Source of the DNA: Eledone cirrhosa
Lineage: Eukaryota
Direction: 5' to 3'
Length of the DNA: 64,000 bases
Assembly (NCBI GenBank): GCA_964016885.1
Contig: OZ024745.1
Coordinates: 8,246,001 to 8,310,000 of the forward strand
In this document: one piece after another, positions 40,994 through 64,000 of the stretch
Numbering within the stretch: the first letter of the stretch is position 1
Layout: each line of letters begins with the position of its first letter
Made by a program: the position numbers and the translations under genes
Notes under the pieces: model-generated
Told to the model about the DNA's origin: nothing
Seen by the model: the letters and a program-made list of their open reading frames with translations, nothing else
Database searches by the model: none

Positions 40994-40998
<5 letters not shown>

Positions 40999-41196
40999 AA
41001 TGAATATATGATAGGGATAAACACTGATACAAGTATACAAGTGTTTGCATTGCAAATGACCAAGTTAGCTAGATTGAAAAATACTAATTAAAATTATTTT
41101 AATTAGTATTTTTCAATCTAGCTAACTTGGTCATTTGCAATGCAAACACTTGTATACTTGTATCAGTGTTTATCCCTATCATATATTCAGTTGTAT
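40994..41196. repeat. Near-perfect palindrome, 101-bp arms, 1-nt centre (41095), abutting (TA)n on the left
   Basis: Arms are reverse complements apart from one mismatch (41000/41190). Confidence 0.95.
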
Positions 41197-41264
41197 TACA
41201 CGGCTCGGAAATATGCCTTTCTTTGAGCTATTTAATTGTAAAAGACTATTTGAGTTTATAACTC

Positions 41265-41297
<33 letters not shown>

Positions 41298-41305
<8 letters not shown>

Positions 41306-41540
41306 TAAGAGGAATTCCAACTTTGTCTGATTTACTCGTTTTATTTACAATCCTTTAAAATATATATAATGGTATTATAATGAAATAGTATGATAGAATA
41401 TTAAATTCTAAGTGTTAATTGAACACTTAGAATTTAATATTCTATCATACTATTTCATTATAATACCATTATATATATTTTAAAGGATTGTAAATAAAAC
41501 GAGTAAATCAGACAAAGTTGGAATTCCTCTTATTAATATA
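41298..41540. repeat. Perfect inverted repeat, 119-bp arms, 5-nt loop (AATTG, 41417-41421), abutting (TA)n on the left
   Basis: ATTAATAAGAGGAATTCC...AAGTGTT pairs with AACACTT...GGAATTCCTCTTATTAAT. Confidence 0.95.
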
Positions 41541-41588
41541 ATCTTCTATACACAATCATACACACCCGTGTATATTTACCTATCTATA

Positions 41589-41625
<37 letters not shown>

Positions 41626-41861
41626 GTAAGTATGTATGTATACGTACATACATATATGTATACAGACGTACAGTAGCATGTATATATATATATATATATA
41701 CATACATACATGCAGGTACACATACATATATGCACGCATCAGTTTAGCAGACGCTTATTATAGCGCTGCTTTGTTCGTTTGTCAACAAACTGAACAGCCT
41801 GAATTTATGCCATACGGTGTTAAGGCAACCACGTCACCTTTTTGTTCAACACTGACACAGG

Positions 41862-41906
41862 AACGATGTACTAGTTTCAAGCTTGTTAGCTATCATCAGC
41901 ACCGTT
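41862..41906 (-). ncRNA. Type I hammerhead ribozyme, copy A
   Basis: Exact reverse complement of 42685-42729. Confidence 0.88.
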
Positions 41907-42329
41907 TACCCATCTGCCAGATAGTTGAACGTTCGAAAGTATATACTTTCCTTATGAAAATTAACGGCTGAGCAGCCTAAATTGCATATTGAGTGAGTTA
42001 AATCGGTCAGGCATACCGAAAACGATAAGTTGAAAAAAAATGAAAACGAAAAACGAAATTTCATTTCTCACTCTTAGTATGGCACTTACTTAAATGTAAG
42101 TATGTATGTATACGTACATACATATATGTATACAGACGTACAGTAGCATGTATATATATATATATATACATACATACATGCAGGTACACATACATATATG
42201 CACGCATCAGTTTAGCAGACGCTTATTATAGCGCTGCTTTGTTCGTTTGTCAACAAACTGAACAGCCTGAATTTATGCCATACGGTGTTAAGGCAACCAC
42301 GTCACCTTTTTGTTCAACACTGACACAGG

Positions 42330-42374
42330 AACGATGTACTAGTTTCAAGCTTGTTAGCTATCATCAGCACCGTT
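42330..42374 (-). ncRNA. Type I hammerhead ribozyme, copy B
   Basis: Exact reverse complement of 42685-42729; 468 bp from copy A. Confidence 0.88.
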
Positions 42375-42684
42375 TACCCATCTGCCAGATAGTTGAACGT
42401 TCGAAAGTATATACTTTCCTTATGAAAATTAACGGCTGAGCAGCCTAATTTGCATATTGAGTGAGTTAAATCGGTCTGTATGCATACATACTTACATTTA
42501 AGTAAGTGCCATACTAAGAGTGAGAAATGAAATTTCGTTTTTCGTTTTCATTTTTTTTCAACTTATCGTTTTCGGTATGCCTGACCGATTTAACTCACTC
42601 AATATGCAAATTAGGTTGCTCAGCCGTTAATTTTCATAAGGAAAGTATATACTTTCGAACGTTCAACTATCTGGCAGATGGGTA

Positions 42685-42729
42685 AACGGTGCTGATGATA
42701 GCTAACAAGCTTGAAACTAGTACATCGTT
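42685..42729 (+). ncRNA. Type I hammerhead ribozyme, copy C
   Basis: AACGGTG-CTGATGA-T-AGCT(AACA)AGCT-T-GAAA-C-TA-GT-A^CATCGTT. 7-bp stem I (one G.U), intact CUGAUGA and GAAA boxes, 4-bp stem II with U.U at 10.1/11.1, palindromic stem III ACUAGU, GUA cleavage triplet (cut after 42722). Confidence 0.9.
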
Positions 42730-43029
42730 CCTGTGTCAGTGTTGAACAAAAAGGTGACGTGGTTGCCTTAACACCGTATGGCATAAATTCAGGCTGTTCA
42801 GTTTGTTGACAAACGAACAAAGCAGCGCTATAATAAGCGTCTGCTAAACTGATGCGTGCATATATGTATGTGTACCTGCATGTATGTATGTATATATATA
42901 TATATATACATGCTACTGTACGTCTGTATACATATATGTATGTACGTATACATACATACTTACAATTAAGTAAGTGCCATACTAAGAGTGAGAAATGAAA
43001 TTTCGTTTTTCGTTTTCATTTTTTTTCAA

Positions 43030-43058
<29 letters not shown>

Positions 43059-43067
<9 letters not shown>

Positions 43068-43167
43068 TTAAAAAATAATGAATAAAACAATGAAACAGTT
43101 CCTTATATTAAACAAAAAAAGAAGGAACTGTTTCATTGTTTTATTCATTATTTTTTAAATATTTTAT
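43059..43167. repeat. Inverted repeat, 46-bp arms, 17-nt loop, abutting (TA)n on the left
   Basis: ATAAAATATTTAAAAAATAATGAATAAAACAATGAAACAGTTCCTT (43059-43104) and its reverse complement (43122-43167). Confidence 0.93.
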
Positions 43168-43298
43168 CTTGACTCTGTATTCCGTTTATCTTTCACCGAA
43201 AGTGATTTTTCATTGCATCTCTTCTTTCCATGATATCCGGATTACATTGAGTTCTTCATACGGATTGGACACTACCGTAAACTCTTGGTAGATTTATC

Positions 43299-43329
<31 letters not shown>

Positions 43330-44561: not shown

Positions 44562-47500
44562 TATAGGTGGTGCCAGATGTACAATAACATGTGGAGGGGA
44601 TATGTCAAGAGTTTCTGACAGTAAAATCTACCATATAGGTGGTGCCAGATGTACAATAACATGTGGAGGGGATATGTCAAGAGTTTCTGACAGTAATATC
44701 TACCATATAGGTGGTGCCAGATGTACAATAACATGTGGATGGGATGTGTCAAGAGTTTCTGACAGTAAAATCTACCATATAGGTGGTGCCAGATGTACAA
44801 TAACATGTGGAGGGGATATGTCAAGAGTTTCTGACAGTAATATCTACCATATAGGTGGTGCCAGATGTACAATAACATGTGGAGGTGTGTCAAGAGTTTC
44901 TGACAATAATGTCTACCATATAGGTGGTGCCAGATGTACAATAACATGTGGAGGGGATATGTCAAGAGTTTCTGACAGTAATGTCTACCATATAGGTGGT
45001 GCCAGATGTACAATAACATGTGGAGGAGGTGTGTCAAGAGTTTCTGACAGTAATATCTACCATATAGGTGGTGCCAGATGTACAATAACATGTGGAGGTG
45101 TGTCAAGAGTTTCTGACAGTAATGTCTACCATATAGGTGGTGCCAGGTGTACAATAACATGTGGAGGTGTGTCAAGAGTTTCTGACAGTAATGTCTACCA
45201 TATAGGTGGTGCCAGATGTACAATAACATGTGGAGGTGTGTCAAGAGTTTCTGACAGTAATATCTACCATATAGATGGTGCCAGATGTACAATAACATGT
45301 GGAGGTGTGTCAAGAGTTTCTGACAGTAATGTCTACCATATAGGTGGTGCCAGATGTACAATAACATGTGGAGGTGTGTCAAGAGTTTCTGACAGTAATG
45401 TCTACCATATAGGTGGTGCCAGATGTACAATAACATGTGGATGGGATGTGTCAAGAGTTTCTGACAGTAATATCTACCATATAGGTGGTGCCAGATGTAC
45501 AATAACATGTGGAGGTGTGTCAAGAGTTTCTGACAGTAATATCTACCATATAGGTGGTGCCAGATGTACAATAACATGTGGAGGTGTGTCAAGAGTTTCT
45601 GACAGTAATATCTACCATATAGGTGGTGCCAGGTGTACAATAACATGTGGAGGTGTGTCAAGAGTTTCTGACAGTAATGTCTACCATATAGGTGGTGCGA
45701 GGTGTACATTAACATGTGGATGGGATGTGTCAAGAGTTTCTGACAGTAATATCTACCATATAGGTGGTGCCAGATGTACAATAACATGTGGAGGGGATAT
45801 GTCAAGAGTTTCTGACAGTAATATCTACCATATAGGTGGTGCCAGATGTACAATAACATGTGGAGGTGTGTCAAGAGTTTCTGACAGTAATGTCTACCAT
45901 ATAGGTGGTGCCAGGTGTACAATAACATGTGGAGGTGTGTCAAGAGTTTCTGACAGTAATGTCTACCATATAGGTGGTGCCAGATGTACAATAACATGTG
46001 GAGGGGATGTGTCAAGAGATTCTGACAGTAATGTCTACCATATAGATGGTGCCAGATGTACAATAACATGTGGAGGAGGTGTGTCAAGAGTTTCTGACAG
46101 TAATGTCTACCATATAGGTGGTGCCAGATGTACAATAACATGTGGATGGGATGTGTCAAGAGTTTCTGACAGTAATGTCTACCATATAGGTGGTGCCAGA
46201 TGTACAATAACATGTGGATGGGATATGTCAAGAGTTTATGACAGTAATATCTACCATATAGGTGGTGCCAGGTGTACAATAACATGTGGAGGGGATATGT
46301 CAAGAGTTTCTGACAGTAATGTCTACCATATAGGTGGTGCCAGGTGTACAATAACATGTGGAGGTGTGTCAAGAGTTTCTGACAGTAATGTCTACCATAT
46401 AGGTGGTGCCAGATGTACAATAACATGTGGAGGGGATGTGTCAAGAGTTTCTGACAGTAATGTCTACCATATAGGTGGTGCCAGATGTACAATAACATGT
46501 GGATGGGAAGTGTCAAGAGTTTCTGACAGTAATATCTACCATATAGGTGGTGCCAGGTGTACAATAACATGTGGAGGTGTGTCAAGAGTTTCTGACAGTA
46601 ATGTCTACCATATAGGTGGTGCCAGGTGTACAATAACATGTGGATGGGATGTGTGAAGAGTTTCTGACAGTAATATCTACCATATAGGTGGTGCCAGGTG
46701 TACAATAACATGTGGAGGGGATATGTCAAGAGTTTCTGACAGTAATATCTACCATATAGGTGGTGCCAGGTGTACAATAACATGTGGAGGTGTGTCAAGA
46801 GTTTCTGACAGTAATGTCTACCATATAGGTGGTGCCAGGTGTACAATAACATGTGGATGGGATGTGTCAAGAGTTTCTGACAGTAATATCTACCATATAG
46901 GTGGTGCCAGGTGTACAATAACATGTGGAGGTGTGTCAAGAGTTTCTGACAGTAATGTCTACCATATAGGTGGTGCCAGGTGTACAATAACATGTGGATG
47001 GGATGTGTCAAGAGTCTCTGACAGTAATATCTACCATATAGGTGGTGCCAGATGTACAATAACATGTGGAGGAGGTGTGTCAAGAGTTTCTGACAGTAAT
47101 GTCTACCATATAGGTGGTGCCAGATGTACAATAACATGTGGAGGAGGTGTGTCAAGAGTTTCTGACAGTAATGTCTACCATATAGGTGGTGCCAGATGTA
47201 CAATAACATGTGGATGGGATGTGTCAAGAGTTTCTGACAGTAATATCTACCATATAGGTGGTGCCAGATGTACAATAACATGTGGAGGGGATATGTCAAG
47301 AGTTTCTGACAGTAATATCTACCATATAGGTGGTGCCAGATGTACAATAACATGTGGAGGTGTGTCAAGAGTTTCTGACAGTAATGTCTACCATATAGGT
47401 GGTGCCAGGTGTACAATAACATGTGGAGGTGTGTCAAGAGTTTCGGACAGTAATGTCTACCATATAGGTGGTGCCAGATGTACAATAACATGTGGAGGGG

Positions 47501-50500
47501 ATGTGTCAACAGTTTCTGACAGTAATGTCTACCATATAGATGGTGCCAGATGTACAATAACATGTGCAGGAGGTGTGTCAAGAGTTTCTGACAGTAATGT
47601 CTACCATATAGGTGGTGCCAGATGTACAATAACATGTGGATGGGATGTGTCAAGAGTTTCTGACAGTAATGTCTACCATATAGGTGGTGCCAGATGTACA
47701 ATAACATGTGGATGGGATATGTCAAGAGTTTATGACAGTAATGTCTACCATATAGGTGGTGCCAGGTGTACAATAACATGTGGAGGGGATATGTCAAGAG
47801 TTTCTGACAGTAATATCTACCATATAGGTGGTGCCAGATGTACAATAACATGTGGATGGGATGTGTCAAGAGTTTCTGACAGTAATGTCTACCATATAGG
47901 TGGTGCCAGATGTACAATAACATGTGGAGGGGATATGTCAAGAGTTTCTGACAGTAATGTCTACCATATAGGTGGTGCCAGATGTACAATAACATGTGGA
48001 TGGGATGTGTCAAGAGTTTCTGACAGTAATATCTACCATATAGGTGGTGCCAGGTGTACAATAACATGTGGAGGTGTGTCAAGAGTTTCTGACAGTAATG
48101 TCTACCATATAGGTGGTGCCAGGTGTACAATAACATGTGGATGGGATGTGTCAAGAGTTTCTGACAGTAATATCTACCATATAGGTGGTGCCAGGTGTAC
48201 AATAACATGTGGAGGTGTGTCAAGAGTTTCTGACAGTAATGTCTACCATATAGGTGGTGCCAGGTGTACGATAACATGTGGATGGGATGTGTCAAGAGTT
48301 TCTGACAGTAATATCTACCATATAGGTGGTGCCATATGTACAATAACATGTGGAGGGGATGTGTCAAGAGTTTCTGACAGTAATGTCTACCATATAGGTG
48401 GTGCCAGATGTACAATAACATGTGGAGGAGGTGTGTCAAGAGTTTCTGACAGTAATGTCTACCATATAGGTGGTGCCAGATGTACAATAACATGTGGAGG
48501 AGGTGTGTCAAGAGTTTCTGACAGTAATGTCTACCATATAGGTGGTGCCAGATGTACAATAACATGTGGATGGGATGTGTCAAGAGATTCTGACAGTAAT
48601 GTCTACCATATAGGTGGTGCCAGATGTACAATAACATGTGGATGGGATATGTCAAGAGTTTCTGACAGTAATGTCTACCATATAGGTGGTGCCAGGTGTA
48701 CAATAACATGTGGAGGGGATATGTAAAGAGTTTCTGACAGTAATGTCTACCATATAGGTGGTGCCAGATGTACAATAACATGTGGATGGGATGTGTCAAG
48801 AGTTTCTGACAGTAATATCTACCATATAGGTGGTGCCAGGTGTACAATAACATGTGGAGGTGTGTCAAGAGTTTCTGACAGTAATATCTACCATATAGGT
48901 GGTGCCAGGTGTACAATAACATGAGGAGGGGATATGTCAAGAGTTTCAGACAGTAATGTCTACCATATAGGTGGTGCCAGGTGTACAATAACATGTGGAG
49001 GGGATATGTCAAGAGTTTCTGACAGTAATGTCTACCATATAGGTGGTGCCAGATGTACAATAACATGTGGATGGGATGTGTCAAGAGTTTCTGACAGTAA
49101 TGTCTACCATATAGGTGGTGCCAGATGTACAATAACATGTGGATGGGATGTGTCAAGAGTTTCTGACAGTAATATCTACCATATAGGTGGTGCCAGGTGT
49201 ACAATAACATGTGGAGGTGTGTCAAGAGTTTCTGACAGTAATGTCTACCATATAGGTGGTGCCAGGTGTGCAATAACATGTGGATTGGATGTGTCAAGAG
49301 TTTCTGACAGTAATATCTACCATATAGGTGGTGCCAGATGTACAATAACATGTGGAGGACGTGTGTCAAGAGTTTCTGACAGTAATGTCTACCATATAGG
49401 TGGTGCCAGATGTACAATAACATGTGGAGGAGGGGTGTCAAGAGTTTCTGACAGTAATATCTACCATATAGGTGGTGCCAGATGTACAATAACATGTGGA
49501 GAAGGTGTGTCAAGAGTTTCTGACAGTAATGTCTACCATATAGGTGGTACCAGATGTACAATAACATGTGGAGGAGGTGTGTCAAGAGTTTCTGACAGTA
49601 ATGTCTACCATATAGGTGGTGCCAGATGTACAATAACATGTGGAGGAGGTGTGTCAAGAGTTTCTGACAGTAATATCTACCATATAGGTGGTGCCAGGTG
49701 TACAATAACATGTGGAGGAGGTGTGTCAAGAGTTTCTGACAGTAATATCTACCATATAGGTGGTGCCAGGTGTACAATAACATGTGGAGGAGGTGTGTCA
49801 AGAGTTTCTGACAGTAATATCTACCATATAGGTGGTGCCAGGTGTACAATAACATGTGGAGGAGGTGTGTCAAGAGTTTCTGACAGTAATATCTACCATA
49901 TAGGTGGTGCCAGGTGTACAATAACATGTGGAGGAGGTGTGTCAAGAGTTTCTGACAGTAATATCTACCATATAGGTGGTGCCAGGTGTACAATAACATG
50001 TGGAGGTGTGTCAAGAGTTTCTGACAGTAATGTCTACCATATAGGTGGTGCCAGGTGTACAATAACATGTGGAGGTGTGTCAAGAGTTTCTGACAGTAAT
50101 GTCTACCATATAGGTGGTGCCAGGTGTACAATACCATGTGGAGGGGATATGTCAAGAGTTTCTGACAGTAATGTCTACCATATAGGTGGTGCCAGGTGTA
50201 CAATAACATGTGGAGGGGATATGTCAAGAGTTTCTGACAGTAATATCTACCATATAGGTGGTGCCAGATGTACAATAACATGTGGAGGTGTGTCAAGAGT
50301 TTCTGACAGTAATGTCTACCATATAGGTGGTGCCAGATGTACAATAACATGTGGATGGGATGTGTCAAGAGTTTCTGACAGTAATATCTACCATATAGGT
50401 GGTGCCAGGTGTACAATAACATGTGGAGGTGTGTCAAGAGTTTCTGACAGTAATGTCTACCATATAGGTGGTGCCAGGTGTACAATAACATGTGGAGGGG

Positions 50501-53500
50501 ATATGTCAAGAGTTTCTGACAGTAATGTCTACCATATAGGTGGTGCCAGGTGTACAATAACATGTGAATGGGATGTGTCAAGAGTTTCTGACAGTAATGT
50601 CTACCATATAGGTGGTGTCAGGTGTACAAAAACATGTGGAGGGGATATGTCAAGAGTTTCTGACAGTAATATCTACCATATAGGTGGTGCCAGATGTACA
50701 ATAACATGTGGAGGAGGTGTGTCAAGAGTTTCTGACAGTAATGTCTACCATATAGGTGGTGCCAGATGTACAATAACATGTGGAGGAGGTGTGTCAAGAG
50801 TTTCTGACAGTAATGTCTACCATATAGGTGGTGCCAGATGTACAATAACATGTGGAGGGAGTGTGTCAAGAGTTTCTGACAGTAATGTCTACCATATAGG
50901 TGGTGCCAGGTGTACAAAAACATGTGGAGGGGATATGTCAAGAGTTTCTGACAGTAATGTCTACCATATAGGTGGTGCCAGATGTACAATAACATGTGGA
51001 TGGGATGTGTCAAGAGTTTCTGACAGTAATATCTACCATATAGGTGGTGCCAGGTGTACAATAACATGTGGAGGGGATATGTCAAGAGTTTCTGACAGTA
51101 AAGTCTACCATATAGGTGGTGCCAGATGTACAATAACATGTGGATGGGATGTGTCAAGGGTTTCTGACAGTAATGTCTACCATATAGGTGGTGCCAGGTG
51201 TACAATAACATGTGGAGGTGTGTCAAGAGTTTCTGACAGTAATGTCTACCATACAGGTGGTGCCAGGTGTACAATAACATGTGGATGGGATGTGTCAAGA
51301 GTTTCTGACAGTAATATCTACCATATAGGTGGTGCCAGATGTACAATAACATGTGGATGGGATATGTCAAGAGTTTCTGACAGTAATATCTACCATATAG
51401 GTGGTGTCAGGTGTACAAAAACATGTGGAGGGGATATGTCAAGAGTTTCTGACAGTAATATCTACCATATAGGTGGTGCCAGATGTACAATAACATGTGG
51501 AGGAGGTGTGTCAAGAGTTTCTGACAGTAATGTCTACCATATAGGTGGTGCCAGATGTAAAATAACATGTGGAGGAGGTGTGTCAAGAGTTTCTGACAGT
51601 AATGTCTACCATATAGGTGGTGCCAGATGTACTATAACATGTGGAGGAGGTGTGTCAAGAGTTTCTGACAGTAATGTCTACCATATAGGTGGTGCCAGAT
51701 GTACAATAACATGTGGATGGGATATGTCAAGAGTTTCTGACAGTAATGTCTACCATATAGGTGGTGCCAGGTGTACAAAAACATGTGGAGGGGATATGTC
51801 AAGAGTTTCTGACAGTAATGTCTACCATATAGGTGGTGCCAGATGTACAATAACATGTGGATGGGATGTGTCAAGAGTTTCTGACAGTAATATCTACCAT
51901 ATAGGTGGTGCCAGGTGTACAATAACATGTGGAGGGGATATGTCAAGAGTTTCTGACAGTAACGTCTACCATATAGGTGGTGCCAGGTGTACAATAACAT
52001 GTGGAGGGGATATGTCAAGAGTTTCTGACAGTAATGTCTACCATATAGGTGGTGCCAGATGTACAATAACATGTGGATGGGATGTGTCAAGAGTTTCTGA
52101 CAGTAATGTCTACCATATAGGTGGTGCCAGATGTACAATAACATGTGGATGGGATGTGTCAAGAGTTTCTGACAGTAATATCTACCATATAGGTGGTGCC
52201 AGGTGTACAATAACATGTGGAGGTGTGTCAAGAGTTTCTGACAGTAATGTCTACCATATAGGTGGTGCCAGGTGTGCAATAACATGTGGATTGGATGTGT
52301 CAAGAGTTTCTGACAGTAATATCTACCATATAGGTGGTGCCAGATGTACAATAACATGTGGAGGACGTGTGTCAAGAGTTTCTGACAGTAATGTCTACCA
52401 TATAGGTGGTGCCAGATGTACAATAACATGTGGAGGAGGGGTGTCAAGAGTTTCTGACAGTAATATCTACCATATAGGTGGTGCCAGATGTACAATAACA
52501 TGTGGAGAAGGTGTGTCAAGAGTTTCTGACAGTAATGTCTACCATATAGGTGGTACCAGATGTACAATAACATGTGGAGGAGGTGTGTCAAGAGTTTCTG
52601 ACAGTAATGTCTACCATATAGGTGGTGCCAGATGTACAATAACATGTGGAGGAGGTGTGTCAAGAGTTTCTGACAGTAATATCTACCATATAGGTGGTGC
52701 CAGGTGTACAATAACATGTGGAGGAGGTGTGTCAAGAGTTTCTGACAGTAATATCTACCATATAGGTGGTGCCAGGTGTACAATAACATGTGGAGGAGGT
52801 GTGTCAAGAGTTTCTGACAGTAATATCTACCATATAGGTGGTGCCAGGTGTACAATAACATGTGGAGGAGGTGTGTCAAGAGTTTCTGACAGTAATATCT
52901 ACCATATAGGTGGTGCCAGGTGTACAATAACATGTGGAGGAGGTGTGTCAAGAGTTTCTGACAGTAATATCTACCATATAGGTGGTGCCAGGTGTACAAT
53001 AACATGTGGAGGAGGTGTGTCAAGAGTTTCTGACAGTAATATCTACCATATAGGTGGTGCCAGGTGTACAATAACATGTGGAGGTGTGTCAAGAGTTTCT
53101 GACAGTAATGTCTACCATATAGGTGGTGCCAGGTGTACAATAACATGTGGAGGTGTGTCAAGAGTTTCTGACAGTAATGTCTACCATATAGGTGGTGCCA
53201 GGTGTACAATACCATGTGGAGGGGATATGTCAAGAGTTTCAGACAGTAATGTCTACCATATAGGTGGTGCCAGGTGTACAATAACATGTGGAGGGGATAT
53301 GTCAAGAGTTTCTGACAGTAATGTCTACCATATAGGTGGTGCCAGATGTACAATAACATGTGGATGGGATGTGTCAAGAGTTTCTGACAGTAATGTCTAC
53401 CATATAGGTGGTGCCAGATGTACAATAACATGTGGATGGGATGTGTCAAGAGTTTCTGACAGTAATATCTACCATATAGGTGGTGCCAGGTGTACAATAA

Positions 53501-56500
53501 CATGTGGAGGTGTGTCAAGAGTTTCTGACAGTAATGTCTACCATATAGGTGGTGCCAGGTGTGCAATAACATGTGGATTGGATGTGTCAAGAGTTTCTGA
53601 CAGTAATATCTACCATATAGGTGGTGCCAGATGTACAATAACATGTGGAGGACGTGTGTCAAGAGTTTCTGACAGTAATGTCTACCATATAGGTGGTGCC
53701 AGATGTACAATAACATGTGGAGGAGGGGTGTCAAGAGTTTCTGACAGTAATATCTACCATATAGGTGGTGCCAGATGTACAATAACATGTGGAGAAGGTG
53801 TGTCAAGAGTTTCTGACAGTAATGTCTACCATATAGGTGGTACCAGATGTACAATAACATGTGGAGGAGGTGTGTCAAGAGTTTCTGACAGTAATGTCTA
53901 CCATATAGGTGGTGCCAGATGTACAATAACATGTGGAGGAGGTGTGTCAAGAGTTTCTGACAGTAATATCTACCATATAGGTGGTGCCAGGTGTACAATA
54001 ACATGTGGAGGAGGTGTGTCAAGAGTTTCTGACAGTAATATCTACCATATAGGTGGTGCCAGGTGTACAATAACATGTGGAGGAGGTGTGTCAAGAGTTT
54101 CTGACAGTAATATCTACCATATAGGTGGTGCCAGGTGTACAATAACATGTGGAGGAGGTGTGTCAAGAGTTTCTGACAGTAATATCTACCATATAGGTGG
54201 TGCCAGGTGTACAATAACATGTGGAGGAGGTGTGTCAAGAGTTTCTGACAGTAATATCTACCATATAGGTGGTGCCAGGTGTACAATAACATGTGGAGGT
54301 GTGTCAAGAGTTTCTGACAGTAATGTCTACCATATAGGTGGTGCCAGGTGTACAATAACATGTGGAGGTGTGTCAAGAGTTTCTGACAGTAATGTCTACC
54401 ATATAGGTGGTGCCAGGTGTACAATACCATGTGGAGGGGATATGTCAAGAGTTTCTGACAGTAATGTCTACCATATAGGTGGTGCCAGGTGTACAATAAC
54501 ATGTGGAGGGGATATGTCAAGAGTTTCTGACAGTAATATCTACCATATAGGTGGTGCCAGATGTACAATAACATGTGGAGGTGTGTCAAGAGTTTCTGAC
54601 AGTAATGTCTACCATATAGGTGGTGCCAGATGTACAATAACATGTGGATGGGATGTGTCAAGAGTTTCTGACAGTAATATCTACCATATAGGTGGTGCCA
54701 GGTGTACAATAACATGTGGAGGTGTGTCAAGAGTTTCTGACAGTAATGTCTACCATATAGGTGGTGCCAGGTGTACAATAACATGTGGAGGGGATATGTC
54801 AAGAGTTTCTGACAGTAATGTCTACCATATAGGTGGTGCCAGGTGTACAATAACATGTGAATGGGATGTGTCAAGAGTTTCTGACAGTAATGTCTACCAT
54901 ATAGGTGGTGTCAGGTGTACAAAAACATGTGGAGGGGATATGTCAAGAGTTTCTGACAGTAATATCTACCATATAGGTGGTGCCAGATGTACAATAACAT
55001 GTGGAGGAGGTGTGTCAAGAGTTTCTGACAGTAATGTCTACCATATAGGTGGTGCCAGATGTACAATAACATGTGGAGGAGGTGTGTCAAGAGTTTCTGA
55101 CAGTAATGTCTACCATATAGGTGGTGCCAGATGTACAATAACATGTGGAGGGAGTGTGTCAAGAGTTTCTGACAGTAATGTCTACCATATAGGTGGTGCC
55201 AGGTGTACAAAAACATGTGGAGGGGATATGTCAAGAGTTTCTGACAGTAATGTCTACCATATAGGTGGTGCCAGATGTACAATAACATGTGGATGGGATG
55301 TGTCAAGAGTTTCTGACAGTAATATCTACCATATAGGTGGTGCCAGGTGTACAATAACATGTGGAGGGGATATGTCAAGAGTTTCTGACAGTAAAGTCTA
55401 CCATATAGGTGGTGCCAGATGTACAATAACATGTGGATGGGATGTGTCAAGGGTTTCTGACAGTAATGTCTACCATATAGGTGGTGCCAGGTGTACAATA
55501 ACATGTGGAGGTGTGTCAAGAGTTTCTGACAGTAATGTCTACCATACAGGTGGTGCCAGGTGTACAATAACATGTGGATGGGATGTGTCAAGAGTTTCTG
55601 ACAGTAATATCTACCATATAGGTGGTGCCAGATGTACAATAACATGTGGATGGGATATGTCAAGAGTTTCTGACAGTAATATCTACCATATAGGTGGTGT
55701 CAGGTGTACAAAAACATGTGGAGGGGATATGTCAAGAGTTTCTGACAGTAATATCTACCATATAGGTGGTGCCAGATGTACAATAACATGTGGAGGAGGT
55801 GTGTCAAGAGTTTCTGACAGTAATGTCTACCATATAGGTGGTGCCAGATGTAAAATAACATGTGGAGGAGGTGTGTCAAGAGTTTCTGACAGTAATGTCT
55901 ACCATATAGGTGGTGCCAGATGTACTATAACATGTGGAGGAGGTGTGTCAAGAGTTTCTGACAGTAATGTCTACCATATAGGTGGTGCCAGATGTACAAT
56001 AACATGTGGATGGGATATGTCAAGAGTTTCTGACAGTAATGTCTACCATATAGGTGGTGCCAGGTGTACAAAAACATGTGGAGGGGATATGTCAAGAGTT
56101 TCTGACAGTAATGTCTACCATATAGGTGGTGCCAGATGTACAATAACATGTGGATGGGATGTGTCAAGAGTTTCTGACAGTAATATCTACCATATAGGTG
56201 GTGCCAGGTGTACAATAACATGTGGAGGGGATATGTCAAGAGTTTCTGACAGTAACGTCTACCATATAGGTGGTGCCAGGTGTACAATAACATGTGGAGG
56301 GGATATGTCAAGAGTTTCTGACAGTAATGTCTACCATATAGGTGGTGCCAGATGTACAATAACATGTGGATGGGATGTGTCAAGAGTTTCTGACAGTAAT
56401 ATCTACCATATAGGTGGTGCCAGGTGTACAATAACATGTGGAGGTGTGTCAAGAGTTTCTGACAGTAATGTCTACCATATAGGTGGTGCCAGATGTACAA

Positions 56501-59500
56501 TAACATGTGGATGGGATATGTCAAGAGTTTCTGACAGTAATGTCTACCATATAGGTGGTGCCAGGTGTACAATAACATGTGGAGGGGATATGTAAAGAGT
56601 TTCTGACAGTAATGTCTACCATATAGGTGGTGCCAGATGTACAATAACATGTGGATGGGATGTGTCAAGAGTTTCTGACAGTAATATCTACCATATAGGT
56701 GGTGCCAGGTGTACAATAACATGTGGAGGTGTGTCAAGAGATTCTGACAGTAATATCTACCATATAGGTGGTGCCAGGTGTACAATAACATGTGGAGGTG
56801 TGTCAAGAGTTTCTGACAGTAATATCTACCATATAGGTGGTGCCAGGTGTACAATAACATGAGGAGGGGATATGTCAAGAGTTTCAGACAGTAATGTCTA
56901 CCATATAGGTGGTGCCAGGTGTACAATAACATGTGGAGGGGATATGTCAAGAGTTTCTGACAGTAATGTCTACCATATAGGTGGTGCCAGATGTACAATA
57001 ACATGTGGATGGGATGTGTCAAGAGTTTCTGACAGTAATGTCTACCATATAGGTGGTGCCAGATGTACAATAACATGTGGATGGGATGTGTCAAGAGTTT
57101 CTGACAGTAATATCTACCATATAGGTGGTGCCAGGTGTACAATAACATGTGGAGGTGTGTCAAGAGTTTCTGACAGTAATGTCTACCATATAGGTGGTGC
57201 CAGGTGTACAATAACATGTGGATTGGATGTGTCAAGAGTTTCTGACAGTAATATCTACCATATAGGTGGTGCCAGATGTACAATAACATGTGGAGGACGT
57301 GTGTCAAGAGTTTCTGACAGTAATGTCTACCATATAGGTGGTGCCAGATGTACAATAACATGTGGATGGGATGTGTCAAGAGTTTCTGACAGTAATATCT
57401 ACCATATAGGTGGTGCCAGGTGTACAATAACATGTGGAGGTGTGTCAAGAGTTTCTGACAGTAATGTCTACCATATAGGTGGTGCCAGGTGTACAATAAC
57501 ATGTGGATGGGATGTGTCAAGAGTTTCTGACAGTAATATCTACCATATAGGTGGTGCCAGGTGTACAATAACATGTGGAGGTGTGTCAAGAGTTTCTGAC
57601 AGTAATGTCTACCATATAGGTGGTGCCAGGTGTACGATAACATGTGGATGGGATGTGTCAAGAGTTTCTGACAGTAATATCTACCATATAGGTGGTGCCA
57701 GATGTACAATAACATGTGGAGGAGGTGTGTCAAGAGTTTCTGACAGTAATGTCTACCATATAGGTGGTGCCAGATGTACAATAACATGTGGAGGAGGTGT
57801 GTCAAGACTTTCTGACAGTAATGTCTACCATATAGGTGGTGCCAGATGTACAATAACATGTGGAGGGGATATGTCAAGAGTTTCTGACAGTAATGTCTAC
57901 CATATAGGTGGTGCCAGATGTACAATAACATGTGGAGGAGGTGTGTCAAGAGTTTCTGACAGTAATGTCTACCATATAGGTGGTGCCAGATGTACAATAA
58001 CATGTGGAGGAGGTGTGTCAAGAGTTTCTGACAGTAATATCTACCATATAGGTGGTGCCAGGTGTACAATAACATGTGGAGGAGGTGTGTCAAGAGTTTC
58101 TGACAGTAATATCTACCATATAGGTGGTGCCAGGTGTACAATAACATGTGGAGAAGGTGTGTCAAGAGTTTCTGACAGTAATATCTACCATATAGGTGGT
58201 GCCAGGTGTACAATAACATGTGGAGGAGGTGTGTCAAGAGTTTCTGACAGTAATATCTACCATATAGGTGGTGCCAGGTGTACAATAACATGTGGAGGAG
58301 GTGTGTCAAAAGTTTCTGACAGTAATATCTACCATATAGGTGGTGCCAGGTGTACAATAACATGTGGAGGTGTGTCAAGAGTTTCTGACAGTAATGTCTA
58401 CCATATATGTGGTGCCAGGTGTACAATAACATGTGGAGGTGTGTCAAGAGTTTCTGACAGTAATGTCTACCATATAGGTGGTGCCAGGTGTACAATACCA
58501 TGTGGAGGGGATATGTCAAGAGTATCTGACAGTAATGTCTACCATATAGGTGGTGCCAGGTGTACAATAACATGTGGAGGGGATATGTCAAGAGTTTCTG
58601 ACAGTAATATCTACCATATAGGTGGTGCCAGATGTACAATAACATGTGGAGGTGTGTCAAGAGTTTCTGACAGTAATGTCTACCATATAGGTGGTGCCAG
58701 ATGTACAATAACATGTGGATGGGATGTGTCAAGAGTTTCTGACAGTAATATCTACCATATAGGTGGTGCCAGGTGTACAATAACATGTGGAGGTGTGTCA
58801 AGAGTTTCTGACAGTAATGTCTACCATATAGGTGGTGCCAGGTGTACAATAACATGTGGAGGGGATATGTCAAGAGTTTCTGACAGTAATGTCTACCATA
58901 TAGGTGGTGCCAGATGTACAATAACATGTGAATGGGATGTGTCAAGAGTTTCTGACAGTAATGTCTACCATATAGGTGGTGTCAGGTGTACAAAAACATG
59001 TGGAGGGGATATGTCAAGAGTTTCTGACAGTAATATCTACCATATAGGTGGTGCCAGATGTACAATAACATGTGGAGGAGGTGTGTCAAGAGTTTCTGAC
59101 AGTAATGTCTACCATATAGGTGGTGCCAGATGTACAATAACATGTGGAGGAGGTGTGTCAAGAGTTTCTGACAGTAATGTCTACCATATAGGTGGTGCCA
59201 GATGTACAATAACATGTGGAGGAAGTGTGTCAAGAGTTTCTGACAGTAATGTCTACCATATAGGTGGTGCCAGATGTACAATAACATGTGGATGGGAATT
59301 GTCAAGTGTTTCTGACAGTAATGTCTACCATATAGGTGGTGCCAGGTGTACAAAAACATGTGGAGGGGATATGTCAAGAGTTTCTGACAGTAATGTCTAC
59401 CATATAGGTGGTGCCAGATGTACAATAACATGTGGATGGGATGTGGCAAGAGTTTCTGACAGTAATATCTACCATATAGGTGGTGCCAGGTGTACAATAA

Positions 59501-62500
59501 CATGTGGAGGGGATATGTCAAGAGTTTCTGACAGTAACGTCTACCATATAGGTGGTGCCAGGTGTACAATAACATGTGGAGGGGATATGTCAAGAGTTTC
59601 TGACAGTAATGTCTACCATATAGGTGGTGCCAGATGTACAATAACATGTGGATGGGATGTGTCAAGGGTTTCTGACAGTAATGTCTACCATATAGGTGGT
59701 GCCAGGTGTACAATAACATGTGGAGGTGTGTCAAGAGTTTCTGACAGTAATGTCTACCATACAGGTGGTGCCAGGTGTACAATAACATGTGGAGGGGATG
59801 TGTCAAGAGTTTCTGACAGTAATATCTACCATATAGGTGGTGCCAGATGTACAATAACATGTGGATGGGATATGTCAAGAGTTTCTGACAGTAATGTCTA
59901 CCATATAGGTGGTGTCAGGTGTACAAAAACATGTGGAGGGGATATGTCAAGAGTTTCTGACAGTAATATCTACCATATAGGTGGTGCCAGATGTACAATA
60001 ACATGTGGAGGAGGTGTGTCAAGAGTTTCTGACAGTAATGTCTACCATATAGGTGGTGCCAGATGTAAAATAACATGTGGAGGAGGCGTGTCAAGAGTTT
60101 CTGACAGTAATGTCTACCATATAGGTGGTGCCAGATGTACTATAACATGTGGAGGAGGTGTGTCAAGAGTTTCTGACAGTAATGTCTACCATATAGGTGG
60201 TGCCAGATGTACAATAACATGTGGATGGGATATGTCAAGAGTTTCTGACAGTAATGTCTACCATATAGGTGGTGCCAGGTGTACAAAAACATGTGGAGGA
60301 GATATGTCAAGAGTTTCTGACAGTAATGTCTACCATATAGGTGGTGCCAGATGTACAATAACATGTGGATGGGATGTGTCAAGAGTTTCTGACAGTAATA
60401 TCTACCATATAGGTGGTGCCAGGTGTACAATAACATGTGGAGGTGTGTCAAGAGTTTCTGACAGTAATATCTACCATATAGGTGGTGCCAGGTGTACAAT
60501 AACATGTGGAGGTGTGTCAAGAGTTTCTGACAGTAATATCTACCATATAGGTGGTGCCAGGTGTACAATAACATGAGGAGGGGATATGTCAAGAGTTTCA
60601 GACAGTAATGTCTACCATATAGGTGGTGCCAGGTGTACAATAACATGTGGAGGGGATATGTCAAGAGTTTCTGACAGTAATGTCTACCATATAGGTGGTG
60701 CCAGATGTACAATAACATGTGGATGGGATGTGTCAAGAGTTTCTGACAGTAATGTCTACCATATAGGTGGTGCCAGATGTACAATAACATGTGGATGGGA
60801 TGTGTCAAGAGTTTCTGACAGTAATATCTACCATATAGGTGGTGCCAGGTGTACAATAACATGTGGAGGTGTGTCAAGAGTTTCGGACAGTAATGTCTAC
60901 CATATAGGTGGTGCCAGATGTACAATAACATGTGGATGGGATATGTCAAGAGTTTATGACAGTAATGTCTACCATATAGGTGGTGCCAGGTGTACAATAA
61001 CATGTGGAGGGGATATGTCAAGAGTTTCTGACAGTAATATCTACCATATAGGTGGTGCCAGATGTACAATAACATGTGGATGGGATGTGTCAAGAGTTTC
61101 TGACAGTAATGTCTACCATATAGGTGGTGCCAGATGTACAATAACATGTGGAGGGGATATGTCAAGAGTTTCTGACAGTAATGTCTACCATATAGGTGGT
61201 GCCAGATGTACAATAACATGTGGATGGGATGTGTCAAGAGTTTCTGACAGTAATATCTACCATATAGGTGGTGCCAGGTGTACAATAACATGTGGAGGTG
61301 TGTCAAGAGTTTCTGACAGTAATGTCTACCATATAGGTGGTGCCAGGTGTACAATAACATGTGGATGGGATGTGTCAAGAGTTTCTGACAGTAATATCTA
61401 CCATATAGGTGGTGCCAGGTGTACAATAACATGTGGAGGTGTGTCAAGAGTTTCTGACAGTAATGTCTACCATATAGGTGGTGCCAGGTGTACGATAACA
61501 TGTGGATGGGATGTGTCAAGAGTTTCTGACAGTAATATCTACCATATAGGTGGTGCCAGATGTACAATAACATGTGGAGGAGGTGTGTCAAGAGTTTCTG
61601 ACAGTAATGTCTACCATATAGGTGGTGCCAGATGTACAATAACATGTGGAGGAGGTGTGTCAAGACTTTCTGACAGTAATGTCTACCATATAGGTGGTGC
61701 CAGATGTACAATAACATGTGGAGGGGATGTGTCAAGAGTTTCTGACAGTAATGTCTACCATATAGGTGGTGCCAGATGTACAATAACATGTGGAGGAGGT
61801 GTGTCAAGAGTTTCTGACAGTAATGTCTACCATATAGGTGGTGCCAGATGTACAATAACATGTGGAGGAGGTGTGTCAAGAGTTTCTGACAGTAATGTCT
61901 ACCATATAGGTGGTGCCAGATGTACAATAACATGTGGATGGGATGTGTCAAGAGATTCTGAGAGTAATGTCTACCATATAGGTGGTGCCAGATGTACAAT
62001 AACATGTGGATGGGATATGTCAAGAGTTTCTGACAGTAATGTCTACCATATAGGTGGTGCCAGGTGTACAATAACATGTGGAGGGGATATGTAAAGAGTT
62101 TCTGACAGTAATGTCTACCATATAGGTGGTGCCAGATGTACAATAACATGTGGATGGGATGTGTCAAGAGTTTCTGACAGTAATATCTACCATATAGGTG
62201 GTGCCAGGTGTACAATAACATGTGGAGGTGTGTCAAGAGTTTCTGACAGTAATATCTACCATATAGGTGGTGCAAGGTGTACAATAACATGTGGAGGTGT
62301 GTCAAGAGTTTCTGACAGTAATATCTACCATATAGGTGGTGCCAGGTGTACAATAACATGAGGAGGGGATATGTCAAGAGTTTCAGACAGTAATGTCTAC
62401 CATATAGGTGGTGCCAGGTGTACAATAACATGTCTAGGGGATATGTCAAGAGTTTCTGACAGTAATGTCTACCATATAGGTGGTGCCAGATGTACAATAA

Positions 62501-64000
62501 CATGTGGATGGGATGTATCAAGAGTTTCTGACAGTAATGTCTACCATATAGGTGGTGCCAGATGTACAATAACATGTGGATGGGATGTGTCAAGAGTTTC
62601 TGACAGTAATATCTACCATATAGGTGGTGCCAGGTGTACAATAACATGTGGAGGTGTGTCAAGAGTTTCTGACAGTAATGTCTACCATATAGGTGGTGCC
62701 AGGTGTACAATAACATGTGGATGGGATGTGTCAAGAGTTTCTGACAGTAATATCTACCATATAGGTGGTGCCAGATGTACAATAACATGTGGAGGACGTG
62801 TGTCAAGAGTTTCTGACAGTAATGTCTACCATATAGGTGGTGCCAGATGTACAATAACATGTGGAGGAGGGGTGTCAAGAGTTTCTGACAGTAATATCTA
62901 CCATATAGGTGGTGCCAGATGTACAATAATATGTGGAGAAGGTGTGTCAAGAGTTTCTGACAGTAATGTCTACCATATAGGTGGTGCCAGATGTACAATA
63001 ACATGTGGAGGAGGTGTGTCAAGAGTTTCTGACAGTAATGTCTACCATATAGGTGGTGCCAGATGTACAATAACATGTGGAGGAGGTGTGTCAAGAGTTT
63101 CTGACAGTAATATCTACCATATAGGTGGTGCCAGGTGTACAATAACATGTGGAGGAGGTGTGTCAAGAGTTTCTGACAGTAATATCTACCATATAGGTGG
63201 TGCCAGGTGTACAATAACATGTGGAGGAGGTGTGTCAAGAGTTTCTGACAGTAATATCTACCATATAGGTGGTGCCAGGTGTACAATAACATGTGGAGGA
63301 GGTGTGTCAAGAGTTTCTGACAGTAATATCTACCATATAGGTGGTGCCAGGTGTACAATAACATGTGGAGGAGGTGTGTCAAGAGTTTCTGACAGTAATA
63401 TCTACCATATAGGTGGTGCCTGGTGTACAATAACATGTGGAGGTGTGTCAAGAGTTTCTGACAGTAATTTCTACCATATAGGTGGTGCCAGGTGTACAAT
63501 AACATGTGGAGGTGTGTCAAGAGTTTCTGACAGTAATGTCTACCATATAGGTGGTGCCAGGTGTACAATACCATGTGGAGGGGATATGTCAAGAGTTTCT
63601 GACAGTAATGTCTACCATATAGGTGGTGCCAGGTGTACAATAACATGTGGAGGGGATATGTCAAGAGTTTCTGACAGTAATATCTACCATATAGGTGGTG
63701 CCAGATGTACAATAACATGTGGAGGTGTGTCAAGAGTTTCTGACAGTAATGTCTACCATGTAGGTGGTGCCAGATGTACAATAACATGTGGATGGGATGT
63801 GTCAAGAGTTTCTGACAGTAATATCTACCATATAGGTGGTGCCAGGTGTACAATAACATGTGGAGGTGTGTCAAGAGTTTCTGACAGTAATGTCTACCAT
63901 ATAGGTGGTGCCAGGTGTACAATAACATGTGGAGGGGATATGTCAAGAGTTTCTGACAGTAATGTCTACCATATAGGTGGTGCCAGATGTACAATAACAT
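44562..64000. repeat. 69/72-bp tandem satellite array (~270 monomers, open at the right window edge); consensus GTGTCAAGAGTTTCTGACAGTAATRTCTACCATATAGGTGGTGCCAGRTGTACAATAACATGTGGA(GGA)GGT
   Basis: Uninterrupted tandem repetition. The variable junction takes the forms GGAGGT, GGAGGAGGT, GGATGGGAT and GGAGGGGAT, with R polymorphisms at two sites. Confidence 0.99.

Follow-up and report, generated by a model that had tools for sequence, protein, structure and literature searches.

Head-to-head copies of a new non-coding retrozyme family in Eledone cirrhosa end at two coupled sites in (TA)n tracts, with twin priming by a Penelope-like element as the best-supported reading

The locus at positions 41591-43061 of the window, the whole 64,000-nt stretch of Eledone cirrhosa DNA analyzed here, raises the question how two copies of one ribozyme-bearing repeat came to stand head to head between two (TA)n tracts. 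It lies within a microsatellite-rich gap of 9 kb between two large satellite arrays. Self-alignment revealed two outward-pointing arms of one 468-bp repeat with a (TA)n tract at each outer end. The block on the minus strand (41621-42476) comprises 1.8 units of 468 bp, the block on the plus strand (42478-43034) comprises 1.2 units, and the two are about 99% identical. With unit numbering starting at the predicted hammerhead cut, the left or short-end (S) arm covers unit positions 329-468, 1-468 and 1-246, and its terminus lies in the loop of a small predicted hairpin (unit positions 236-253). The right or tail-end (T) arm covers unit positions ~224-468 and 1-312. The ends of the two arms are therefore not equivalent. 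The S arm stops at unit position 246 and the T arm at 312, 66 nt later; this 66-nt tail (unit positions 247-312; 42969-43034, plus strand) is found at the T end of the locus only. Minimal type I hammerhead motifs are located at 41862-41906 (minus strand, predicted cut 41869/41868), 42330-42374 (minus strand, predicted cut 42337/42336) and 42685-42729 (plus strand, predicted cut 42722/42723). As read from the sequence, the left target tract (41591-41622) overlaps its arm by a TA microhomology of 2 nt, and the right one (43032-43061) shares 3 nt of microhomology with its arm. The arms meet at a 12-bp palindrome (42477-42488). An earlier sequence-only reading had claimed two ribozyme-strand blocks in this geometry, which was confirmed by the self-alignment together with the outward-pointing hammerhead motifs; the 3' ends of both arms run into (TA)n as it had described, and the palindrome is present. 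Both arms consist of the 468-bp unit only, and no ORF for a reverse transcriptase or a GIY-YIG endonuclease was found in them. Among the thousands of copies, the window locus is an ordinary one. Its G at 42482 is seldom seen in the repeat family, and about 99% of the raw reads of run X21 that map there carry an A.

Each unit of the family contains a single minimal hammerhead motif of type I, whose stem III is palindromic. The catalytic core is kept in 290 of 300 motif matches of the family, some of which are overlapping loci. Variation was found at the free core position, in loop II and as a one-sided G-U/A-U change in stem I. These are tolerated positions. Rfam gives no score: a search of the window, hammerhead motifs included, returned no match at the gathering score. 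In plain folding of a 76-nt motif stems I and II form, with a stability that is not unusual (z=-1.22). A 40-nt hammerhead piece has 10,122 exact matches in the 3.0-Gb genome, and the arrays consist of one to more than ten units and are dispersed over several contigs. In L044 and L180 the array exceeds 14 kb and shows higher-order repeats of ~2-3 kb, i.e. an expansion after insertion. At L043 (5058-6683) an unrelated insertion of 1.6 kb, in which no long ORF was found, splits the array at its internal TA run.

Retrozymes are tandem hammerhead repeats which give circular RNA and are probably moved by Penelope-like elements (PLEs), according to the available text of PMC7229834 and bioRxiv 10.64898/2026.07.22.740005. 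The repeat studied here likewise consists of non-coding tandem units, each a few hundred bp long and equipped with a type I hammerhead but with no coding partner inside, and it is multi-copy and dispersed. Judged by its sequence, it is a young non-coding retrozyme family with the known PLE footprint, and a new one. It resembles the metazoan non-LTR retrozymes of these two texts in its tandem non-coding type I hammerhead unit and low GC; both occur as thousands of dispersed short arrays with PLEs co-resident, and PLE mobilisation has been proposed. The unit here has 468 bp and a TA run, in contrast to the 170-400 nt described for invertebrates and the 51-972 bp of the preprint. No description of head-to-head arms or of fixed S and T ends was found in the available text of PMC7229834, where the word "inverted" is absent, or in that of the preprint, and the accessible part of a recent octopus repeat annotation (PMC13282606) holds no mention of retrozymes or hammerheads.

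For the analysis of further copies we sampled the surroundings of the best matches (18 regions), a consecutive series of 50 clusters on contig 1 and another 40 end-anchored loci. Among the S- and T-type arm ends called automatically in the first 69 regions, 96 of 107 run into TA repeats. The targeting of (TA)n proposed for the window locus therefore holds for the family. Over the whole genome, the exact end motif followed by TA was found 1,765 times for S and 2,256 times for T, and only 1 and 0 times for the reversed-pattern controls, so both combinations are far above chance. Neither S nor T coincides with the ribozyme cut or with the long internal TA run of the unit. Since this run is rarely the end, the S and T ends are not chosen by microhomology alone; the TA microhomologies noticed at both 3' ends are real but do not set the ends. 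Compound microsatellites were informative at 4 of 27 loci, and at all 4 their polarity agrees between the two sides (P=0.125); any target duplication would be hidden by the (TA)n. A flank-pair search for an empty paralog found none in 1.0 Mb of sampled loci, its single match being another repeat family. At L082 the flank to the right of the TA tract consists of a short stretch of the left flank in inverted orientation.

These ends bear on the idea that no endonuclease is involved, i.e. that a (TA)n tract breaks unaided, for example at a cruciform, and its ends capture RNA via TA microhomology for use by any reverse transcriptase. Long TA tracts are known fragile sites, and at the window locus both ends lie in TA tracts and have a microhomology of 2-3 nt. 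However, annealing would favour the internal TA run of 16-30 nt, yet 107 of the 131 arms in the first 69 regions end at S or T. The model does not force one S and one T end per insertion, and an endonuclease-bearing PLE leaves the same footprint. We consider such a repair route improbable.

The S and T ends occur in pairs. The first 69 regions contain 43 head-to-head pairs, which were called automatically as 27 S+T, 2 S+S, 1 T+T and 13 with another end. After inspection they comprise 30 S+T, no same-type pair and 13 other or ambiguous cases: L100 is a T+S locus split by an expanded TA run, L090 terminates in the internal TA run, L044 runs out of the sampled stretch, and L124 and L128 come out as S+T. 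On contig 1, 197 end matches gave 23 head-to-head neighbours within 5 kb, 3 of them already in the set of 43, and all 23 are S+T (P=2.4e-7 against 50%). Within the same distance there are 4 same-direction neighbours. Tail-to-tail neighbours are absent (0 against 23 head-to-head), in line with the head-to-head polarity that had been claimed. The 40 further anchored loci, read by eye, comprise 22 opposite-type loci (one of them weak, and two in which other DNA separates the arms), no same-type locus and 18 that are solo or ambiguous. Some partner arms among them are only 7-14 nt long, and 45 of the 131 arms in the first 69 regions are without a detected partner. In every pair that could be typed, the 66-nt tail is on exactly one arm. 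A check of 3' flanks and polarity over many copies thus bore out the TA preference and the polarity; that the ends are asymmetric and coupled had been missed by the sequence-only reading. Ends that are asymmetric, coupled and not set by microhomology point to start sites defined by an enzyme rather than to a passive break, and the ends of the arms appear to be such sites. An older subfamily (L182-L200) with ~85% identity and a shorter tail follows the same S+T rule.

The two arms of a locus are closely related. Arm-to-arm divergence has a median of 0.7%, compared with 3.6% to other loci (30 of 36 pairs with enough overlap). Rare alleles are common to both arms in 22 of 156 cases, versus 0.9% across loci, and 18 of these 22 occur in every unit; the window locus itself has no shared rare alleles. 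Both comparisons agree with the earlier claim of a single RNA species for both arms. The shared variants may also be due to conversion between the arms or to two RNAs from a single source locus. They speak against two separate insertions in one TA hot spot, later trimmed to a head-to-head pair. Many elements are indeed stacked in the TA tracts of this region, three older palindromic stubs next to the window locus among them. However, there is no TA between the joined arms, rare alleles are common to both, and tail-to-tail neighbours within 5 kb and same-ended pairs among the 23 head-to-head pairs are both lacking. This explanation is very improbable and already largely refuted.

A single priming event followed by fold-back would account for identical arms and for one tail per insertion. 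Here a cDNA or an antisense RNA snaps back and copies the inverted arm, and the endonuclease resolves the product at a second site, so that only one side keeps the tail. Self-priming on an antisense template was proposed for PLEs and is favoured in the available text of PMC3846280, and resolution by the endonuclease was proposed for the tail in that of PMC8557442. In L085 and L104 the inversion falls at an identical unit position in both arms, and the window locus has its 12-bp palindrome. Fold-back of a single cDNA onto itself should leave the second arm nested within the first. Among 26 S+T pairs, 10 fit a T-first and 10 an S-first order and 6, the window locus among them, fit neither, compared with 6.7 expected for independent arm lengths, in a test that is weakened by array expansion after insertion as in the higher-order repeats of L044 and L180. 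The lengths therefore behave independently, as two separately primed cDNAs, claimed by the earlier reading, would have it. The antisense-RNA version of fold-back is compatible with the arm lengths. Against fold-back, palindromes are not enriched at the junctions, and both boundaries of the tail were mapped in vitro as starts of reverse transcription (PMC11167929, available text). Altogether, fold-back is an unlikely source of the inverted arms.

The 5' breakpoints are evenly spread round the unit (P=0.29) and only 1 of 52 is near the ribozyme cut, which points to a multimer or a circle as template. Even breakpoints, arms that run past the cut and rare alleles in every unit are at most indirect signs of a self-cleaved, circular RNA. 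A linear monomer cut by the hammerhead was ruled out by the same figures. Ostertag and Kazazian are said to have described twin priming for L1 in 2001: two 3' ends of the target reportedly prime on the element RNA, which leads to a 5' inversion joined by microhomology. The second primer is said to anneal at variable internal sites, and the two cDNAs reportedly barely overlap. In the repeat studied here, by contrast, both sites are fixed, and the overlap of the arms can reach several units. No more than 2 of 26 T arms halt near the S site, and an L1-style collision of two cDNAs was ruled out on this basis. Twin priming from two fixed sites is the best-supported reading of the head-to-head arms, with a probability of about 0.7.

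Of 37 junctions, 28 were reliable and 9 were left out as unreliable. Microhomology of at least 2 nt was found in 22 of the 28 (null 43%, P=2e-4). Palindromes of at least 6 bp per arm are present in 3 of 28 (null 5%) and those of at least 4 bp in 6 of 28 (null 20%). Short snap-back joining, which the sequence-only reading had taken as the route, is thus not borne out as a general one: palindromes are not enriched, and microhomology is. In the repeat family the arms are joined by microhomology, and snap-back is not the rule. The 12-bp palindrome of the window locus is unique among the 69 regions; the part of the unit that holds it is of low complexity and natively near-palindromic. For this reason an 8-nt deletion or a join by 3 nt of microhomology would explain the junction equally well; snap-back is possible at this one locus. 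Among the mapped read runs and contigs, no read or contig was shown to bridge the junction of the window locus or its TA tracts, as would be seen if it were a chimera of library or assembly with fold-back reads at TA tracts. However, raw reads of X21, which is another sample and whose library was perhaps amplified, hold left-to-right arm joints of other copies. Thousands of loci, graded in age and with different junctions, share the fixed ends, and a chimera is the least probable of the explanations considered.

The architecture itself is known from PLEs. Insertions of endonuclease-bearing PLEs have an inverted 5'-truncated head-to-head copy, a tail at one end, partial tandems and a hammerhead in the terminal repeat, and in the Hydra and Naiad clades (TA)n is targeted (PMC8557442; PMC3846280; available text of both). 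The repeat likewise has an inverted, 5'-truncated head-to-head copy, a tail at one end only, partial tandems, (TA)n and a hammerhead. It differs in having no ORF and in a tail of 66 nt instead of 30-40 nt. In addition, the tail is optional according to the available text of these two papers, whereas the pairing of one S with one T end is near-strict here. The head-to-head PLE-type architecture is therefore already described; new are the measured S+T coupling and two loci at which the repeat is fused to a PLE. The purified Poseidon PLE of anole cuts and extends both target strands in vitro and is predicted to form a dimer. It starts at two internal RNA sites which bound the tail, one of them in a stem-loop, with no strand difference in the start site (all PMC11167929, available text). 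The two internal starts that bound the tail, one in a stem-loop, resemble the S and T sites. Poseidon belongs to a different clade and is autonomous, and the same text leaves the inverted arms unexplained.

A possible partner is present in the genome. Starting from L095 we identified a young, high-copy PLE with intact ORFs of 800 aa at L159, L171 and L175. Its translations contain a C-terminal GIY-YIG, RW, DKT, a CxCX5C linker, CxxC and CxH motifs, with RWT instead of RWK and, in L171, DKS; its ends lie in (TA)n. The assignment to the Hydra clade was made by motifs against section 11 of PMC8557442. In a Pfam search the GIY-YIG match on the L095 fragment was weak (E=0.003, below the cut-off), and there was none for the whole protein. 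The terminal region of this PLE is far longer than usual and contains only a degenerate hammerhead-like motif. The PLE has its own S and T ends, ~95 nt apart, with 5,027 and 7,198 exact matches. Its head-to-head pairs, drawn from 70 of 100 listed S ends and 100 listed T ends, comprise 31 S+T pairs out of 35, 3 S+S and 1 T+T among the matches listed. The link to Penelope elements that the earlier reading had drawn is strengthened by this co-resident PLE and its ends. Fusions of repeat and PLE were found at 2 of 108 loci. At L092 (C1 ~26725400-26726900) a PLE T arm stands head to head with an arm that ends at the S site of the repeat. This second arm begins in PLE coding sequence and passes directly into the repeat, and the remainder of the PLE is absent. 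L095/L157 (C1 ~36250800-36254400) is the reciprocal of this fusion. Each fused locus thus combines one arm that stops at a site of the repeat with another that stops at the complementary site of the PLE. Both could also be nested insertions with a deletion, of ~1.3 kb at L092 and ~40 bp at L095. No new fusion was found in the 40 further anchored loci, and cross-family head-to-head pairs were not found among the exact end matches listed. L107 was not counted as a fusion; it consists of a repeat T arm, ~400 bp of other stubs and then a PLE S arm. On this evidence from sequence, the Hydra-type PLE of L092 and L095 is the foremost candidate for a mobiliser of the repeat.

We therefore favour, at about the same probability as twin priming itself, that the retrozyme is copied in trans by a PLE reverse transcriptase-endonuclease, which would cut both strands of the (TA)n target and prime one cDNA from each. 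The array would be transcribed, self-cleaved by the predicted hammerhead and probably circularised. The PLE protein, probably as a dimer, would bind the region of the RNA from S through the tail to T. The cDNA from one target end would then begin at T and the cDNA from the other at S, and both may extend upstream with strand displacement, crossing the hammerhead site repeatedly. Finally, the 3' ends of the cDNAs would be joined via 0-6 nt of microhomology and filled in. Against copying by a PLE in trans, the start site in vitro is alike on top and bottom strands, and coupling is not described in the available text of PMC11167929. No sequence similarity was found between the repeat and the PLE terminal region, fused loci are 2 of 108, and 4 of 35 PLE pairs among the matches listed are off the rule. 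A stricter form, obligate asymmetric twin priming, seems to us to have somewhat less than an even chance. Here each target strand would be assigned one fixed RNA start, both cDNAs would roll round circular RNA made by the ribozyme, and the arms may come from different RNAs, as at L092 and L095.

The origin of the tandem and inverted ends of PLEs was named as an open problem in PMC8557442, and the enzyme that spreads animal retrozymes was inferred from co-occurrence and homology (PMC7229834; bioRxiv 10.64898/2026.07.22.740005), as far as the available text of these sources goes. Both questions become directly testable with the existing in vitro system, since this young family offers thousands of insertions and a near-strict S+T rule, and the genome also holds two fusions and a PLE that has intact ORFs and follows the same rule. 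If true, obligate asymmetric twin priming would account at once for the one-sided tail and the inverted pseudo-LTR, and would name the Hydra-type PLE as mobiliser of the retrozyme. In the literature covered, which comprises few subscription papers and takes PMC11167929, PMC8557442 and the preprint without their supplements, neither strict end pairing nor twin priming of PLEs was found.

The surroundings of the window locus are rich in other repeats. Satellite arrays with units of 39 bp and 69/72 bp flank the gap (1-35567 and 44562-64000). Three older near-perfect palindromes (40994-41264, 41298-41590 and 43059-43300) each begin at (TA)n and extend unpaired on one side; they resemble head-to-head stubs that belong to other families of PLE type. 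Since these stubs adjoin the window insertion, its flanks are stacked insertions themselves. Another repeat, with a hammerhead-like core, is present on the plus strand as two diverged copies ~3.1 kb apart (40324 and 43434). The stub family of 40994-41264 is multi-copy, with at least nine copies at C11:4465418-4489538, several of them ~1 kb apart.
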